A stretch of DNA of 64,000 bases from Enterobacteria phage Ac3, in sequence record OK040907; one strand, written 5' to 3'. Both the position numbers and the translations under genes were made by a program. The notes beneath the pieces were generated by a model. The model made no database searches, was not told the DNA's origin, and worked only from the letters and a program-made list of their open reading frames with translations. Of the stretch, positions 16,571 to 24,368 are shown piece after piece. How positions within the stretch are numbered: the stretch's first letter is position 1; each line of letters starts with the position of its first letter.

Positions 16571-16574
16571 CAAT

Positions 16575-16604
16575 GGGGACCTTTCGGTCCCCATATTTTT
16601 ATTT
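16575..16604 (+). terminator. hairpin GGGGACC-TTTC-GGTCCCC plus T-rich tract after gene 54
   Basis: perfect 7-bp stem followed by ATATTTTTATTT. Confidence 0.6.
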
Positions 16605-16889
16605 ACGGAATGAAATAAAAGCAGCAACTGAAGCAACAGAGGTTTCTTCAATATAAACCTCAATTTTTACCGGAGCTTCTGACTCAAATTTACCTGTTAC
16701 TACACCTTGGAAAATACTTTCAGTCTGTTCTGGCTTTGAAAAATTTTCAGAAGGAAAAATTCCGAACTTTTTATCTGTTCCAAAAATTTTGATAAATTCA
16801 TCGTAAACTGCTTCATTGAAAGCGTTATCAGCGGGAATAACGCCTTCAACGACGAGTTCTTGACCTAAAAAGCGCAAAGAAGATTTCAT
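16599..16889 (-). CDS. small early protein downstream of an early promoter
   Basis: 96-aa ORF; GAGGAA Shine-Dalgarno and early promoter directly upstream. Confidence 0.6.
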   Translation of the reverse strand: MKSSLRFLGQELVVEGVIPADNAFNEAVYDEFIKIFGTDKKFGIFPSENFSKPEQTESIFQGVVTGKFESEAPVKIEVYIEETSVASVAAFISFRK

Positions 16890-16920: not shown

Positions 16921-16950
16921 ACTATAACACAACATGAGGGACTTGTAAAC
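16921..16950 (-). promoter_or_regulatory. T4-type early promoter (GTTTAC, 18-nt spacer, TATAGT)
   Basis: minus strand GTTTACaagtccctcatgttgtgtTATAGT; part of an exact 54-bp repeat also found at 32174..32227. Confidence 0.7.
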
Positions 16951-19007
16951 TACATTTTGAACTTTTTAGACATTCCGTTGATGTTAACCAAAGAAGCTAA
17001 GATTTGAGAAACTTCGTTTTCCTCTTCTTTTGATTCTTCTACAAGGAATTGATTAAATCCAGCCATTGGACGAACTTCACCAGTTTCCATTAGATGGTCG
17101 CCATCATATACTGATTCTTCTAATTGTTCAGAAGGAGGAACGATTGTACCTTCGATTAGATACTTGTTATAAGCAGTTTCTTTCATAAAGTAAGTACTTA
17201 CTTTATTAATCTTCAGTAAAATTCCACGTGGTAGAATAACTTCAGCTTCTGATGGAAATCCTGATAAATGACCTGGAACGATAACTTTAACTCGTTCAGC
17301 TCCTTTAATTACCATACCCACGCTAGTTTCAGCATCTTCATTAGCATATGTAGAATGACTACCCATATGCATCAAATCTTCTGCATCAACGGAACCTTCT
17401 CCTTCACCAGAAAATACTGCTCCGGAATTATCTAAGGCCATATAATTTTTACCATACTCACCAAAGATATTTGGTTTAAGTGATGTCGATACGAAGTTCT
17501 TGAAATAGAACATTTTATTTTCAATGTTATGACGCAAAGTTTTAAAAGTAACTTCTTGTCCACGGTAAAGTGTAGTTCCTGGAGGAAGAACTGAACCTTT
17601 AGCGAATGCAGAATCCAGCGTCTCAATATGTTTAATAGCTCGTTCCATATATTCTTCACGTGTAGAATCAGGTTTACCTAAAAGGAATGAGTTCATTTCA
17701 ACATACGAATCTGCGCAATAATCTTCAATTACATCAGACTCAGCCTGAGTCAATCCTTTTGGAGTTACTTCAGTGCTTGCATATTCATACGCCTGAGCAG
17801 CGGATTCATCAATTAATTTATAAATTCCATTCATTACAAATTGAATAATAGCTGTCTTTTCATCTGGTGTAGCTTTAGAACCTTTAACTAAATCATTGAT
17901 AATTTTCTTAATAACATCAAAACTATTAGAAATATTAATATCAGCAAGATCGCTTAAAATTTTATCAGTTTTGTAATTAAAGAAGTCTTTATTCTTTAAA
18001 TATTCCTGGGAACCTTGATATGATGTATCGCTCTGCAACTTGATAGATGGATCGCGTAAACGCGCATGGGCTAATGCAATATGATTTCGGAAACTTTCTA
18101 GTTCATAATCGTTAGATTTAAAACGAGAAGCACTTCTCATACCGCCGATAGCTCCTTTGCCGAAGTTTGAACCAATCTGAATAACGCCAGAGTTCATTGG
18201 TCCTTCTGCTTTATATACCGGAACTTTAGATTCAAATTCTTGATATTTCTTAGCAGCGAAGCTATCACCCTGAAGTGAAGCATCAACAGTAGAATATTGA
18301 GCTTGTGCTGCTAATCGACGACTAATTTTAGTTTTCTGAATAACAGCTTGATCCGTACGCTTATCATTTTCTAAAGCAATAGAAGCAGCAACTGCGACAG
18401 CTTTAGGAACAGCATTACCTGTTTTAACGTCTACATAAACATCACCGACTTTCGATTCAACTTTTGTGAATAACTCAGTTGAAATAGGAGGTACACCTGG
18501 AATGTCTTCTAAATTGGCATTTTTACGGTAAACCATAATATATGCATATTTCTTATCATAGTCCCAGATTTCCTTTAAAAGAACATATCGACCTGCTCCT
18601 TTAGTACGTACTAAACGGTCAGCAATAACTTGCATTTGACGAGCAGCGCCATTTGTTTTACTTTTTAGTACGCGGAATAGGCATGCATCAATTTTATACT
18701 GTTTCATTGTTTGAAGAGCAGTATCAAAAACCGCATTAATGACACCAATTGGATTTCCACCCAAGTTTTTAAGCTTAACTAACGATAATTTCTCATTAAC
18801 ACCTATCATTACGATATGCATCATTTTGTCGCCTGGCTTAACGTTTTTATTCGTATCACCGCCAGAGGTGTATGTACAAAATCGAAATCCAGGAAGAACG
18901 CTTTCTTCACCGGCTTGAATAGCAAAAATTTGAGGTATTTTATGCTTAGGATTTAAGTTAACAACCGGCGCCGAAGCGCCGTCAAATAATTCTGTAATAA
19001 GTTCCAT
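16950..19007 (-). CDS. Alt-like ADP-ribosyltransferase, paralog 2
   Basis: 685-aa ORF; N-terminus MELITELFDG; ART-like motifs YRGQ, FVSTS, EAEVILPRG (R / S-T-S / E-x-E). Confidence 0.85.
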   Translation of the reverse strand: MELITELFDGASAPVVNLNPKHKIPQIFAIQAGEESVLPGFRFCTYTSGGDTNKNVKPGDKMMHIVMIGVNEKLSLVKLKNLGGNPIGVINAVFDTALQTMKQYKIDACLFRVLKSKTNGAARQMQVIADRLVRTKGAGRYVLLKEIWDYDKKYAYIMVYRKNANLEDIPGVPPISTELFTKVESKVGDVYVDVKTGNAVPKAVAVAASIALENDKRTDQAVIQKTKISRRLAAQAQYSTVDASLQGDSFAAKKYQEFESKVPVYKAEGPMNSGVIQIGSNFGKGAIGGMRSASRFKSNDYELESFRNHIALAHARLRDPSIKLQSDTSYQGSQEYLKNKDFFNYKTDKILSDLADINISNSFDVIKKIINDLVKGSKATPDEKTAIIQFVMNGIYKLIDESAAQAYEYASTEVTPKGLTQAESDVIEDYCADSYVEMNSFLLGKPDSTREEYMERAIKHIETLDSAFAKGSVLPPGTTLYRGQEVTFKTLRHNIENKMFYFKNFVSTSLKPNIFGEYGKNYMALDNSGAVFSGEGEGSVDAEDLMHMGSHSTYANEDAETSVGMVIKGAERVKVIVPGHLSGFPSEAEVILPRGILLKINKVSTYFMKETAYNKYLIEGTIVPPSEQLEESVYDGDHLMETGEVRPMAGFNQFLVEESKEEENEVSQILASLVNINGMSKKFKM

Positions 19008-19010
19008 GAT

Positions 19011-21107
19011 TTATCCTTGAACGAACTTGTAAGGCATGTTTGTAATATCTATGCAAGACGCAATAATTCCAAGAGATGATTCTACTTTCTGTTTAACGTT
19101 TGATGAAACAAATGATGCAAAGTCAACTCTGTCTTCTATTTCAGTATCACCTGTCATTGCAACTACTTCACCGGTTTCCATTAAATGGTCTCCGTCATAG
19201 ATTACCGATTCGGTGAGCTCTTCCGTGGTCATAACTTCAGCTTGAATGAGTTTTGTATTATTAGATGTTGTTCCGTCATTATTAGAAGCATCAGTTATTT
19301 TATTAACTTTGACCATCAATCCACGCGGTAGAATAACTTCAGCTTCTGTTGCTATTCCGAGACTTCCTGGATATACAACATTAACTTTATGAGCTCCATC
19401 AATTGCCCATCCTATTTGAACTTTAACGTATTCAGGATTTTCTTTATACGCTCTTATTTCGTTTGGATTAATAGTTATTCCTTCTTCATTTTTATCAACT
19501 GTTAATTCATTGCGAGCTTCTGGTTCTAAAAGACCAATACCAGCATGTGTGATTCCAAAACGTCCAAAAATGATAGGAGTTAAAGAAGTAGATACAAAAT
19601 TTCTGAAGTAGAACACTTTATTTTTAACTAACGCTTCATATATAGGAGCAGTCATACTTTGAGCACGATAAACTGTAATGCCTTCTGGTATACGGTCACC
19701 ATTTTCAAAAGCTGAATCTAAGTTATTTATAGCAGATTCAATTTCTTTTTCACTCATTACATCATATCGTTCTGGATTGTAACGACCTAAAAGAAGATTA
19801 TTGATGTCAGTATATCCTGAACCACAATATTCTCTAATGCCACGCTTTTGTGATGGAGTATATTTAGAACCATCGCGGGCAATAGTAATATCAATCATTG
19901 GACCAGCACCAATTCCAGAAAAACTGTAAATCATTCGTTTGAGGAATTTAGTTTTTGCTGCGTTCCAGGAATTTTTAGTTATTTCTTCCCAGACTTCATC
20001 TGGTTGTCCTTTACGATTTTTATTATGATTAGCAAGCCATTTATCTTTATAATCTTCAAAGAATTGATTTACAGCTGCTGCGTATTTCTCTAAACATTTT
20101 ATTGAAGTAGTTGGTTCATTTTTAATTGCATTAAAAATTACTTCTTTAATTTTTTCTGAAACTTCACCGACTTGACTCATTGGAAAGAATTTATAATCAT
20201 AGTGAAGTTCATCTGCCGTTCCTTCAGCAATAATTTTTGCTGCCTTTGTTTTAGAAGCTAATGAATTAATTCCAATTTTCATTTCTTCTGCTTCGGGAAT
20301 TAAAGGTGCAGTAGCTGGTTTATTAAAATTAGCTGCTGTAGATTCATACTTCTGGAATAATTCACTTTCAAATCTAGAAGATTCCAATGACTGACTTTGT
20401 GCAATTGCTCTACGGGAAATTTTAACTTTAACGATTACGGCTTGGTCAGAACGTTTATCATTTTCTTGTGCAATAGATGCAGCAATTGCCTCATTTTTGG
20501 TTACTTGAGCTCCAGTATCTTTATTGATATAAACATCACCGACCTTCGATTCAACTTTAGTAAAGAGCTCGGTGCTAATTTCTGGAACTCCTGGAATGTC
20601 TTCTAGTGATACATTTTTACGATGTATAAGAATATATGCATACTTTTTATCGTAATCCCAGAGTTCCTTAAGAAGGACGTATCTGCCACCTGAACGACTG
20701 CGGATGAGTCTATCAGCAATAAGTTGAATTTGTCGAGCTTGACCTGCGGTTTTAGACTTAAGAATACGAAGCATGCAGGCATCAATTTTATATTGACGCA
20801 TTGTTTGCATTGCAACAGTAAAAACTGAATTGATATAATTAATCGGGCTTGGACCAAGACCTTTTAATTTAGCAATTGAACCTTTAGCAGTTAATGTAAA
20901 AGGAACAATATGCATCATTTTATCGCCCATCTTTAAATCACGATTAGTATCACCTCCAGATGTATAGGTACATAAACGAAAGCCTGGTTGTTCAATTGCA
21001 TCATCAACATGAACTGAAAAAATTTGTGGTATTTTCTTCTTTGGATTTAAGTTTGTAATCGGAAGAGTAGTATCTTCGTCAAATAATTCTGTAATGAGTT
21101 CCATCAT
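19011..21107 (-). CDS. alt: Alt-like ADP-ribosyltransferase, paralog 1
   Basis: 698-aa ORF; N-terminus MMELITELFDEDTTLPITNLNPKKKIPQIF; motifs YRAQ, FVSTS, EAEVILPRG; late promoter upstream; adjacent to gene 30 as T4 alt. Confidence 0.88.
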   Translation of the reverse strand: MMELITELFDEDTTLPITNLNPKKKIPQIFSVHVDDAIEQPGFRLCTYTSGGDTNRDLKMGDKMMHIVPFTLTAKGSIAKLKGLGPSPINYINSVFTVAMQTMRQYKIDACMLRILKSKTAGQARQIQLIADRLIRSRSGGRYVLLKELWDYDKKYAYILIHRKNVSLEDIPGVPEISTELFTKVESKVGDVYINKDTGAQVTKNEAIAASIAQENDKRSDQAVIVKVKISRRAIAQSQSLESSRFESELFQKYESTAANFNKPATAPLIPEAEEMKIGINSLASKTKAAKIIAEGTADELHYDYKFFPMSQVGEVSEKIKEVIFNAIKNEPTTSIKCLEKYAAAVNQFFEDYKDKWLANHNKNRKGQPDEVWEEITKNSWNAAKTKFLKRMIYSFSGIGAGPMIDITIARDGSKYTPSQKRGIREYCGSGYTDINNLLLGRYNPERYDVMSEKEIESAINNLDSAFENGDRIPEGITVYRAQSMTAPIYEALVKNKVFYFRNFVSTSLTPIIFGRFGITHAGIGLLEPEARNELTVDKNEEGITINPNEIRAYKENPEYVKVQIGWAIDGAHKVNVVYPGSLGIATEAEVILPRGLMVKVNKITDASNNDGTTSNNTKLIQAEVMTTEELTESVIYDGDHLMETGEVVAMTGDTEIEDRVDFASFVSSNVKQKVESSLGIIASCIDITNMPYKFVQG

Positions 21108-21127: not shown

Positions 21128-21135
21128 TATTTATA
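21128..21135 (-). promoter_or_regulatory. T4-type late promoter TATAAATA (minus strand) upstream of alt
   Basis: reverse complement of TATTTATA about 20 nt upstream of the alt start. Confidence 0.6.
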
Positions 21136-21156
21136 AAATTAAAGGCCCGAAGGCCT

Positions 21157-21345
21157 TTAATAATCTATTGGTAATAGAGTACGATATATTTCAAACTTTG
21201 GACCTTTTTCATAAGCATCAAAAGTTTCTGTGAATTTATTATAAGCATATGCATCTATAAATTCAATCATGATTTGCGATACAGAAGTAGAAACATCTCC
21301 ACCTTCTTTTTGAGCCACGACAATTGTTTCTAAGTAAGCTTTCAT
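21157..21345 (-). CDS. small hypothetical protein between gene 30 and alt
   Basis: 62-aa ORF with stop/start overlap to gene 30. Confidence 0.5.
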   Translation of the reverse strand: MKAYLETIVVAQKEGGDVSTSVSQIMIEFIDAYAYNKFTETFDAYEKGPKFEIYRTLLPIDY

Positions 21346-22805: not shown

Positions 22806-23071
22806 TGTTCATCCTTTAGAGTTTGGTTTACAGCTCTATTATAAATCAATTCATCATTAAGCTCAGTCAAAGACCTGTGGTACGTGGTTCTAACTTTATT
22901 TCCTTGCATCCAGTGCTTGACGTAAATGAAACCTTGCTCTACACATTTTTTAAAAATTCGTTCGTCTTTTTGAGCTCGAAATTCTGGATTGCATCTAAAA
23001 AATTGATTTACGTGACCGTAATCACGTGTAGTATTACCTTCATTTTCATAAATAGTGTGAACGACAAACAT
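22802..23071 (-). CDS. hypothetical protein (gene 30.x cluster)
   Basis: 89-aa ORF with overlapping stop/start. Confidence 0.55.
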   Translation of the reverse strand: MFVVHTIYENEGNTTRDYGHVNQFFRCNPEFRAQKDERIFKKCVEQGFIYVKHWMQGNKVRTTYHRSLTELNDELIYNRAVNQTLKDEQ

Positions 23072-23907
23072 TAGAATGCTCCTTGGAAAATATTATCACC
23101 ACCAGTAGGTCTATTATACAAATACTCTATGCCACCAGGTTTAATATAGTTCCATGTCTGAAACGGATGTGTCTGATATGGATGATATAGATTATAAGGA
23201 TTAAATCCAGGAGTTCTCCAGGTAGTGTTCCAAGGAAAAGAATCATTTTTAATCATCTTTTCAATTACATCTTTTATAGCTTTTTCACTATCAAAACTTT
23301 CTTTATTTTCCTTCGATGGAAAAAGCTTATTCTCTACATCATTCCATGTATAAACTCGCTGCGCAGTTTTTGGAATACTGTCACGCTCTCCTCGAGCCAT
23401 CCAATAAACAGGAACATTTAATATTTCACTCGCGTGATCGCAGTGGTGAGCGAGATCGTCAATATAACAAATTACGTTATATTTCTCTTTTGCCTTTTTG
23501 AACAACTCTTCTTTTGAAGAATCATGACCACACATCAATACTTCTGAGAAGGCACCAGGAAAAAGAGCATTCAAATTAAATTGACGATTTAGCAGAGCGT
23601 CAATAGAATCACCCAATGCTGTAACAGCTACAAAATTATAATCTTCTTTTAATTTGTTAATTACACACAGGGCATCTTTATACGGAGACAAGTAACGAAT
23701 AAAATCTGAACGATTGTATTTTTCAATTAACTTGACACCAAGTTCTTCATCGCAATTAAAGAGCTTACCAGGAGAAATAAATTTTTCGTCCTGAATCATT
23801 TTTAAAATATGTTCCAACGGAAGATTATATTTTTGAGCAAAATAAGGAAGACCTGATTGCCAGCTTAAACATACACCATCAATATCAGTCAAAATAGTAG
23901 GCTTCAT
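23071..23907 (-). CDS. HAD-like hydrolase family protein (gene 30.x cluster)
   Basis: 278-aa ORF; N-terminal LTDIDGV resembles HAD motif I (DxDG). Confidence 0.55.
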   Translation of the reverse strand: MKPTILTDIDGVCLSWQSGLPYFAQKYNLPLEHILKMIQDEKFISPGKLFNCDEELGVKLIEKYNRSDFIRYLSPYKDALCVINKLKEDYNFVAVTALGDSIDALLNRQFNLNALFPGAFSEVLMCGHDSSKEELFKKAKEKYNVICYIDDLAHHCDHASEILNVPVYWMARGERDSIPKTAQRVYTWNDVENKLFPSKENKESFDSEKAIKDVIEKMIKNDSFPWNTTWRTPGFNPYNLYHPYQTHPFQTWNYIKPGGIEYLYNRPTGGDNIFQGAF

Positions 23908-24368
23908 AGAGAGTCTCTTAATAGGTTTAACACATCAATAAATTCAGCTTCGGTTAGTATTGTATCATCTTTTGTTAGACTACTAGCCATGCTGTGCTTC
24001 AAAACTTTTCCTTTCGAGGCTTGTAATGCATCACGAAAGCCCTTGTTTTGAATCGCTGCCTCAAAATACGCATTTGTGTATAATTCTTTCCACGCTGGAG
24101 AGTATCTTGAAAACGGAACTCCGAGCCAGAAGAGGGTCCCACGGTCCTGAGCTCTAGCATAAGACCTTCCAGCTTGTTGGGCGGCAAGCCCGGATAACCC
24201 AAATACACGACGTTGCTGTTCAACATTTTTCACCTTACATCCTTGGAGAAATCCTTCAAGACCTCCAAATTGGATACCATCCATAACAAAAGGCCATTGG
24301 GCGAAATTACTTAATGCACACGATGGCCATCTAAAATTGCTTCTAATCTCTAACTCAGACATTTTCAA
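23904..24368 (-). CDS. YbiA/NADAR-like protein (gene 30.x cluster)
   Basis: 154-aa ORF; LSNFAQWPFVMDGIQF…GFLQGCK pattern resembles the YbiA/DUF1768 (NADAR) signature. Confidence 0.5.
   Translation of the reverse strand: MKMSELEIRSNFRWPSCALSNFAQWPFVMDGIQFGGLEGFLQGCKVKNVEQQRRVFGLSGLAAQQAGRSYARAQDRGTLFWLGVPFSRYSPAWKELYTNAYFEAAIQNKGFRDALQASKGKVLKHSMASSLTKDDTILTEAEFIDVLNLLRDSL

Follow-up and report, generated by a model that had tools for sequence, protein, structure and literature searches.

The locus between gene 30/alt.1 and alt.-3/gene 54 of Enterobacteria phage Ac3 raises the question of why a T-even phage carries two Alt-like genes head to tail where T4 has just one full alt gene. The window that we analyzed, 64,000 nucleotides of sequence record OK040907, matches phages RB68 and RB51 at 100% identity, and its phage belongs to the T2/RB51 type of T-even phages. 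Both open reading frames of the original prediction are present at the coordinates given and lie on the minus strand. Copy 1 (19011..21107), which has 698 aa when read from its first ATG, is Alt in its T2/RB51 allele, and copy 2 (16950..19007; 685 aa) is Alt2. Copy 1 begins with two adjacent ATGs; the second, at 21104, is used in the RB51 record and gives a protein of 697 aa. The position of the pair is conserved, in synteny with T4, RB51, T2, and T6.

The stop codon of copy 1 and the ATG of copy 2 are separated by the expected 3 nt (19008..19010, minus strand), read from the sequence as TAA-atc-ATG, and an AGGA ribosome-binding motif for copy 2 lies upstream of its ATG, within the last codons of copy 1. 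A match to the T4 late-promoter motif, TATAAATA (21128..21135, minus strand), stands 20 nt upstream of the first ATG of copy 1, directly after a hairpin, and the arrangement in T4 is identical. The pair had been described as preceded by a single late promoter; the motif does precede it, but is not strictly single, as another exact TATAAATA occurs within copy 1 (19724-19731, minus strand). The latter may be due to chance, since the whole window contains 12 matches vs. 9 expected. The hairpin (AAAGGCC-TTCG-GGCCTTT, read directly; 21141..21158, minus strand) is terminator-like, overlaps the stop codon of alt.1 and has the same sequence as that upstream of T4 alt; a terminator upstream of alt is reported to be conserved in five of six T4-like genomes (PMC1524935). 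It was absent from the list of a simple terminator scan. Downstream, alt.-3 (16599..16889, minus strand; 96 aa, DUF5498) is the last gene of an apparent alt-alt2-alt.-3 unit, because the coding strand carries no terminator-like site between the alt genes and alt.-3. A bidirectional hairpin terminator (16573..16594; a 9-bp stem with 6 GC pairs, found on both strands) lies between gene 54 (plus strand) and alt.-3 (minus strand). Matches to sigma-70-type promoters were not enriched (21 found vs. 19.5 expected), and at this chance level no early promoter is claimed; we infer late transcription of the alt pair from TATAAATA at 21128-21135. In NCBIfam, no family was found for copy 1, copy 2, or alt.-3.

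Copy 1 consists of an N-terminal propeptide ending in ITE (residues 1-7), an N-domain (~12-240), a helical center (~245-415), an ART domain (~416-630) with R481, S506-T-S508, and E588-x-E590, the C-terminal cleavage motif LTE (631-633), and a C-terminal propeptide (634-698). The corresponding parts of copy 2 are a propeptide ending in ITE (1-6), an N-domain (~11-238), a helical center (~245-415), an ART domain (~416-628) with R482, S507-T-S509, and E587-x-E589, a predicted C-terminal cleavage motif LEE (629-631), and a C-terminal propeptide (632-685). The motifs named in the original prediction (YRAQ/YRGQ, FVSTS, and EAEVILPRG) were confirmed in both copies, and both keep the catalytic residues Arg, Ser-Thr-Ser, and Glu-x-Glu in this order; R, S-T-S, and E-x-E are invariant among 17 family members. 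Against PF03496 (ADPrib_exo_Tox; cut-off 23.4 bits) copy 1 scored 129.9 bits and copy 2 71.7 bits, and they matched phrog_802 “Alt-like” over residues 1-697 (E 2e-273) and 1-685 (E 6e-256), respectively; the homologues bear the precomputed domain PF26846 besides PF03496. A PDB sequence search returned only weak CdtA/iota matches for copy 1 (E about 1e-3 to 1e-4) and no match for copy 2. The ART fold is predicted for both copies by structure models, which are of moderate confidence and have low pLDDT in the substrate loops (about 516-560) and in both propeptides. In T4 Alt, activity was abolished by E577A, which replaces the second Glu of ExE (numbering from the first ATG), and it is only for T4 Alt that NAD-dependent ADP-ribosylation of protein arginine has been shown (PMC11404850). 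Both copies are predicted from these features to be Alt-family R-S-ExE mono-ADP-ribosyltransferases specific for arginine. The correspondence between ExE and arginine specificity is an established rule of the family and not a test of these proteins.

Prohead-protease cleavage motifs, which were looked for in both copies, were found at the N- and the C-terminus of each. The processing sites of T4 Alt determined by mass spectrometry are ITE-6 and LTE-619 (PMC5694885). The gp21 motifs of copy 1 (ITE and LTE 631-633) and copy 2 (ITE 4-6 and LEE 629-631) match the positions cleaved in T4, a match that concerns motif presence only. The P1 Glu of the cleavage sites (E6 and E631 in copy 2) is invariant among the 17 family members.

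Phenotypes are available for close counterparts in phage Bas37 (KarlGJung). Its Alt2 (bas37_0032, QXV82013) is the same gene as copy 2, equal to it in length (685 aa) and in position; their identity is 98%, and so is that between copy 1 and bas37_0033 “Alt.” The published transposon data come from the supplementary tables of a preprint, and the reading given here is not that of its authors. On K-12, Alt was non-essential (0.92 of TA sites hit), whereas Alt2 was classed as “Intermediate” (0.71), with ~5-fold fewer insertion reads per site. With Mokosh type I, insertions in Alt were lost (log2FC -7.74), and insertions in Alt2 were enriched when the system was plasmid-borne (log2FC +1.32, adjusted p 0); this enrichment was absent in the native isolate CFE331 (log2FC 0.12, not significant). 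Bas37 Alt is needed against Mokosh type I, and the phenotype of Alt2 differs. Supplied from a plasmid, the copy 1-type allele of Bas37 did not replace T4 Alt against Mokosh type I (bioRxiv 10.1101/2025.11.20.689424).

The cost of Alt2 insertions on K-12, where Alt insertions carry none, could also reflect a role in assembly. According to such an explanation, copy 2 is made late and is not injected, and either acts in the producing cell or is mainly a structural part of the prohead core, with catalysis secondary. Alt has indeed been described as a prohead core protein besides an enzyme (PMC11404850, PMC9026906), and in the literature searched we found no discussion of “Alt2,” of alt paralogues, or of virion proteomics for copy 2. 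Nevertheless, we consider this explanation rather improbable: the catalytic R, S-T-S, and E-x-E are invariant, dN/dS in the ART domain is 0.054, and the propeptide motifs are the same as those of the injected Alt. Moreover, T4 and 90 other records live without Alt2, which is therefore not an essential structural part.

What remains in T4 is informative about the history of the pair. Its alt.-1 and alt.-2 (NP_049810, NP_049809) are the remnant of the gene of copy 2, collinear with copy 2 across the repeat junction (332 of the first 347 nt identical, 95.7%) and 96.3% identical (129/134 nt) from the last codons of copy 2 into alt.-3. They result from a 1,699-nt deletion between two copies of the 9-nt direct repeat CTAAAAAGT, which in the window lie at 18660..18668 (minus strand; upstream copy, copy 2 codons ~114-116, the 5' deletion edge) and at 16961..16969 (minus strand; downstream copy, last codons of copy 2, the 3' deletion edge). 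The deletion takes copy 2 from codon ~117 to near its end, including the whole center and the ART domain, and in what is left the loss of 1 nt breaks the reading frame in two. This junction is common to 91 phage records, on both copy 1 allele backgrounds. T4's own annotation regards alt.-1/alt.-2 as an old duplication of alt, and the T6 record notes an “apparent insertion in alt.-2.” We favor a deletion in T4 over an insertion in T6, for two reasons: the long form represents a full-length Alt homologue that is under purifying selection and has Dhakavirus counterparts, and in T4 the junction falls within a direct repeat and occurs together with a frameshift.

Such repeated loss, or spread of a loss, together with an internal stop in copy 2 of Shigella phage sb1, might be expected if copy 2 were a redundant duplicate heading for loss, with no function apart from that of Alt. 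This appears very unlikely, given that strong purifying selection acts on copy 2 (dN/dS 0.04-0.055, below 0.09 in every domain, with dS up to 0.28) and that 401 records have it intact at an identity of 90% or more. Copy 2 also shares only 13% identity with copy 1 in the center and 35% in the ART domain, and under Mokosh type I the transposon phenotypes of Alt and Alt2 are opposite in direction.

Aligned pairwise from end to end, the copies are 41% identical (E 1e-161), far more than chance would give. The divergence had been placed in the central linker and the extreme C-terminus; it is present there, but the loop between STS and ExE is unrelated as well (3-13% identity). Identity at third codon positions is about 40-55%, near saturation, and there are no long identical tracts. 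Judged by their sequences, the copies are paralogues of Alt that diverged long ago. That the likeness of their N-domains stems from recent gene conversion was rejected in view of this third-position identity and of longest similar tracts that are only 70-80% identical. That the pair is a recent lineage-specific duplication setting this phage apart from T4, as the single full-length alt gene of T4 might suggest, is refuted and practically without probability, considering the near saturation of third positions, the derivation of the T4 remnant from copy 2, the pair in T2, T6, and about 400 records, and the copy 2-type genes at the same position in Dhakavirus.

Comparison of the alt locus across T-even phages placed both genes in about 400 phage records, among them T2 and T6, in which copy 2 is intact. 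The RB51 and RB68 records annotate both as Alt-like, and in the BASEL phage records genes 98% identical to the window proteins are already named Alt and Alt2; the gene of copy 2 goes by “alt.-2” in the RB14 and RB51 records, and T2 and T6 carry it as an ORF without a name. For copy 1, the T2-type allele is found in about 316 records vs. about 174 with the T4 type, and its center is 96.4% identical to T2 alt X69893. The Alt/Alt2 pair is already known and annotated and is the normal state in T4's relatives. Being ordinary for the phage group, it adds nothing new to the catalog, and the novelty implied by the original prediction has to be given up largely in favor of a conserved ancestral pair.

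The two halves of these proteins have different histories. Trees of the N-domain track genus, whereas those of the center and the ART domain track type (fast distance method). Copy 1 and a Dhakavirus gene are 95% identical in the catalytic domain and only 48% in the N-domain; at the nucleotide level, copy 1 and Dhakavirus WG01 ORF200 share 84-95% identity across the ART domain, compared with about 50-56% across the N-domain. Compared with T4 Alt, nucleotide identity is 91-100% up to about residue 235 and falls to about 45-55% in the center. On the basis of sequence comparison, the center and catalytic modules behave as cassettes exchangeable between phages, and the N-domain follows lineage. 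That the effector half is exchanged like a cassette, next to an N-domain specific to the lineage, suggests a role of these genes in the arms race between defense and counter-defense.

We consider it probable that Alt and Alt2 are sub-functionalized injected effectors, each with an exchangeable effector module. The sub-functionalization originally proposed is partly supported, by real, old paralogues, intact motifs, purifying selection on copy 2, and differing transposon phenotypes, and its implied novelty is lost. Both copies would be transcribed from one late promoter together with alt.-3. The conserved alpha/beta N-domain would serve as the module placing Alt and Alt2 in the prohead core, the helical center and the ART domain would act as the effector and target-recognition module, and a putative C-terminal propeptide would follow the L-x-E protease motif. 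The two proteins would be packaged, undergo trimming by the gp21 protease, and enter the host along with the injected DNA; they may then ADP-ribosylate different host proteins, because their centers and substrate loops are unrelated.

A further scheme is put forward more tentatively, as a possibility that we would not yet favor. Sharing a lineage-specific delivery module (the N-domain and both propeptides), Alt and Alt2 may compete for the ~40 prohead-core places per T4 head, so that their injected doses trade off, and their unrelated cassettes may hit different host or defense targets and be swapped between genera like polymorphic toxin domains. If true, this trade-off would explain why disruption of Alt2 helps against Mokosh type I and costs fitness on plain K-12. 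If Alt2 is indeed injected, decades of work on T4 would have overlooked a second injected effector that T2, T6, and most other T-even phages carry. T4 served as the model for defining injected ADP-ribosyltransferases and is itself a natural deletion mutant for Alt2; T2, T6, and some four-fifths of the sequenced relatives have kept Alt2 under strong purifying selection, and in Bas37 it shows a measurable transposon phenotype.

The nearest known system to copy 1 is T4 Alt (gpAlt, NP_049811), a capsid-packaged and injected NAD+:arginine ADP-ribosyltransferase. The two agree in position (alt.1/gene 30 to alt.-3/gene 54), in the context of promoter and hairpin, and in their ITE and LTE cleavage motifs, and their C-terminal propeptides are near-identical. 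Their N-domains are 99% identical, whereas identity falls to 64% in the ART domain and to just 30% in the central domain. The C3/VIP2/iota-type R-S-E bacterial toxins (Vis, CPILE-a, C3bot, Certhrax, VIP2, and SpvB) form a related class. As in the window, the gene 54-to-ligase locus of Straboviridae contains from one to three Alt-like genes in head-to-tail order, which was noted in 2006 (PMC1524935). Among the matches listed, Dhakavirus WG01 has three, Acinetobacter phage ZZ1 two, Aeromonas phage 44RR2.8t two and a fragment, and RB49/Phi1 one and a fragment; Karamvirus CC31 and a Mosigvirus, in contrast to the pair described here, have a single alt gene. The copy number and the cassette content of the alt locus vary by genus.

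The two alt-like genes lie head to tail, as originally predicted apart from minor corrections; both are minus-strand ORFs (copy 1, 19011–21107, 698 aa; copy 2, 16950–19007, 685 aa). They are separated by the expected 3 nt (TAA atc ATG), and an AGGA stands immediately 5′ of the copy 2 ATG. Pairwise alignment of the two proteins (BLASTP) revealed 41% identity end to end (E 1e-161). Both exceeded the 23.4-bit cut-off of PF03496, the Pfam ADP-ribosyltransferase exoenzyme profile (129.9 bits for copy 1 and 71.7 bits for copy 2), and both matched the PHROG “Alt-like RNA polymerase ADP-ribosyltransferase” over their full length. The AlphaFold models (pLDDT 75.8 and 71.9) had the same build: an alpha/beta N-domain (~11–240), a helical centre (~245–415) and the ADP-ribosyltransferase (ART) domain (~420–625), flanked by N- and C-terminal tails of low confidence where the propeptides are.

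The catalytic residues are retained in both copies: the Arg, both Ser of S-T-S and both Glu of E-x-E are invariant across 17 aligned members of the family. E590 of copy 1 and E589 of copy 2, each the second Glu of E-x-E, correspond to T4 Alt E577 (numbered from the first of two ATGs), and the E577A substitution abolishes ADP-ribosylation in T4 Alt (PMC11404850). T4 Alt is cut by the prohead protease gp21 after ITE-6 and LTE-619, according to mass spectrometry (PMC5694885). Both motifs are present in both copies, as ITE and LTE in copy 1 and, where the sequences align, as ITE and LEE in copy 2, and the Glu of both motifs was also invariant in the 17-member alignment. The most conserved part of the C-terminal region, (S)V(I)YDGDHLMETGE, lies immediately after the C-terminal cleavage motif, at the start of the C-propeptide (17085–17114 in copy 2 and 19179–19208 in copy 1, minus strand); its Y, D, G, D, E, G and E were invariant in 17/17 members. 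Mature T4 Alt is devoid of this motif, and such strong conservation despite removal suggests that the propeptide has a conserved role, e.g., in core binding or in holding the enzyme inactive.

The pair had been regarded as a departure from the single alt gene of T4. T4 does have one full 682-aa gene, the counterpart of copy 1 by alignment, followed by the short ORFs alt.-1 and alt.-2, which its record describes as the first part of alt, duplicated long ago. In the alignment, these ORFs match the N-terminus of copy 2 and not that of T4’s own Alt. The remnant is identical to copy 2 at 332 of the first 347 nt, with its frame split by a single-base deletion, and then resumes at the last codons of copy 2, continuing into the downstream gene alt.-3 (129/134 nt identical). 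The junction sits in the 9-nt repeat CTAAAAAGT, copies of which occur in the window at 18660–18668 and 16961–16969 (minus strand), 1,699 nt apart. Since the remnant tracks copy 2 across this junction, T4 derives from a two-gene ancestor, and a deletion between these short direct repeats removed most of its copy 2. The junction, used as a query, was fully covered in 91 records, including phages with an RB51-type copy 1. In AV119 (L003 5471–5749) and slur14 (L004 5551–5754), the T4-type remnant adjoins the RB51/T2-type allele of copy 1, reflecting either independent assortment of both alleles by recombination or recurrent repeat-mediated deletion.

Intact copy 2 was found at ≥90% identity in 401 records; thus, the two-gene state is the majority and T4 the exception. 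T2 and T6 carry the pair, and the 4.9-kb alt stretch is 100% identical in RB68 and RB51 (Tequatrovirus), with similar DNA in 546 phage records. The original records name the second gene alt.-2, the T6 record notes an “apparent insertion in alt.-2; also similar to alt,” and in RefSeq both genes of RB51 carry the annotation Alt-like ADP-ribosyltransferase. In the BASEL phage KarlGJung (Bas37), whose two proteins are each 98% identical to those of the window, the labels are “ADP-ribosyltransferase Alt” and “ADP-ribosyltransferase Alt2.” The pair is therefore real, but ancestral, widespread, annotated and already named.

Paralogous duplications of alt were pointed out in 2006 (PMC1524935). Copy number at the locus differs within the family: there are three alt-like genes in Escherichia phage WG01 (Dhakavirus), two and a fragment in 44RR2.8t, two in ZZ1, one and a fragment in RB49/Phi1, and one each in CC31 and a Mosigvirus. 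The WG01 trio is in tandem at the same locus (L010 2371–8483; 631, 693 and 707 aa), and its first gene differs from all others sampled in the centre (10–16% identity) and the ART domain (33–39%). The third codon positions of copies 1 and 2 agree at 40–55%, the conserved N-domain included, and long identical DNA tracts are absent, which indicates an old duplication; the same observations rule out recent gene conversion maintaining the copies.

Identity varied strongly among domains (N-domain, centre and ART, respectively): 67, 13 and 35% between copies 1 and 2; 99, 30 and 64% between copy 1 and T4 Alt; 48, 65 and 95% between copy 1 and WG01 ORF200; and 47 (WG01 ORF199), 44 and 57% between copy 2 and WG01 ORF199/JS10 Alt. 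N-domain trees sorted by phage genus, whereas trees of the centre and ART sorted by cassette type with 100% bootstrap support. The simplest reading is that a lineage-bound delivery domain is fused to effector cassettes which phages exchange by recombination. The ART DNA of copy 1 (19218–19920, minus strand) is 84–95% identical to that of WG01 ORF200 (L010 4275–6356), whereas the N-terminal halves are saturated (~50–56%), which indicates a fairly recent exchange of this cassette between genera.

Copy 2 was full length in all five orthologues compared (RB68, T6, ZN18, DCP2 and slur02), with pairwise dN/dS of 0.04–0.055 (dS up to 0.28) and below 0.09 in each domain. In Shigella phage sb1 (L006 201–2258) it has an internal stop and is annotated as two ORFs, owing either to independent inactivation or to a sequencing error.

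A 2025 preprint based on phage transposon sequencing reported that Alt aids T4 and Bas37 in evading Mokosh type I, and that plasmid-expressed T4 Alt rescues whereas Bas37 Alt does not (bioRxiv 10.1101/2025.11.20.689424). Alt2 is absent from its main text but present in its tables. In the Bas37 reference library on K-12, 164/179 TA sites were hit in Alt (“Non-essential”) and 116/164 in Alt2 (“Intermediate”), and reads per site in control libraries were about five-fold lower for Alt2. Under plasmid-borne Mokosh type I, mean reads per site fell from 213.1 to 0.0 for Alt (log2FC −7.74) and rose from 41.6 to 105.3 for Alt2 (log2FC +1.32, adjusted p 0); on isolate CFE331, Alt decreased (log2FC −1.56) and Alt2 was unchanged. 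These opposite or unequal patterns show that Alt and Alt2 differ in behaviour in vivo.

In the best-supported model, both ADP-ribosyltransferases would be made late, packaged in the capsid, trimmed by the protease and injected, sharing a delivery module and differing in target recognition. The analysis shows their homology, the conservation of motifs and fold, the selection, the ancestry and the differing phenotypes. For Alt2, we infer packaging, cleavage, injection, arginine specificity and targets different from those of Alt. The catalytic residues are invariant, the dN/dS of copy 2 is low and T4-type phages dispense with Alt2; this disfavours two rivals, one in which Alt2 acts only in the producing cell or has a structural role, the other in which it is a redundant duplicate. 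The original prediction of sub-functionalised injected effectors is reasonable. Speculatively, Alt and Alt2 might be in competition for one set of core sites, and the enrichment of Alt2 insertions under Mokosh would then be explained.

Downstream of copy 2, alt.-3 (16599–16889, minus strand; 96 aa, DUF5498) is the orthologue of T4 alt.-3, in which C-terminal extension mutants escape CmdTAC defence (PMC11618068); in Bas37, alt.-3 insertions were depleted on strain CFT073 (log2FC −2.70, adjusted p 0.02). On the other side, a gp30.3 homologue (23904–24368, minus strand; PF08010) is listed with a TTG start and 12 residues before the profile match. T4 30.3/adfN reportedly reverses DarT ADP-ribosylation of DNA (bioRxiv 10.1101/2025.11.20.689424), which makes this homologue a second ADP-ribose-related host-conflict gene ~3 kb from the pair. 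The 278-aa ORF at the T4 gene 30.2 position (23071–23907, minus strand) had no Pfam match at E ≤0.001.

The scan revealed no coding-strand terminator-like site between copy 1, copy 2 and alt.-3, which appear to be co-transcribed; a bidirectional hairpin (16573–16594) ends the unit. The proposed single late promoter was partly upheld: an exact TATAAATA precedes copy 1 (21128–21135, minus strand), but a second lies within it (19724–19731, minus strand), ~720 nt 5′ of the copy 2 start. The latter could drive an independent late transcript of copy 2 and alt.-3 or be due to chance; TATAAATA is only slightly enriched in the window (12 observed vs 9 expected). Upstream of copy 1, a hairpin (21141–21158) is followed by TATAAATA, a GAGAGGA ribosome-binding motif and two adjoining ATGs, and the alt gene of T4 has the same layout.
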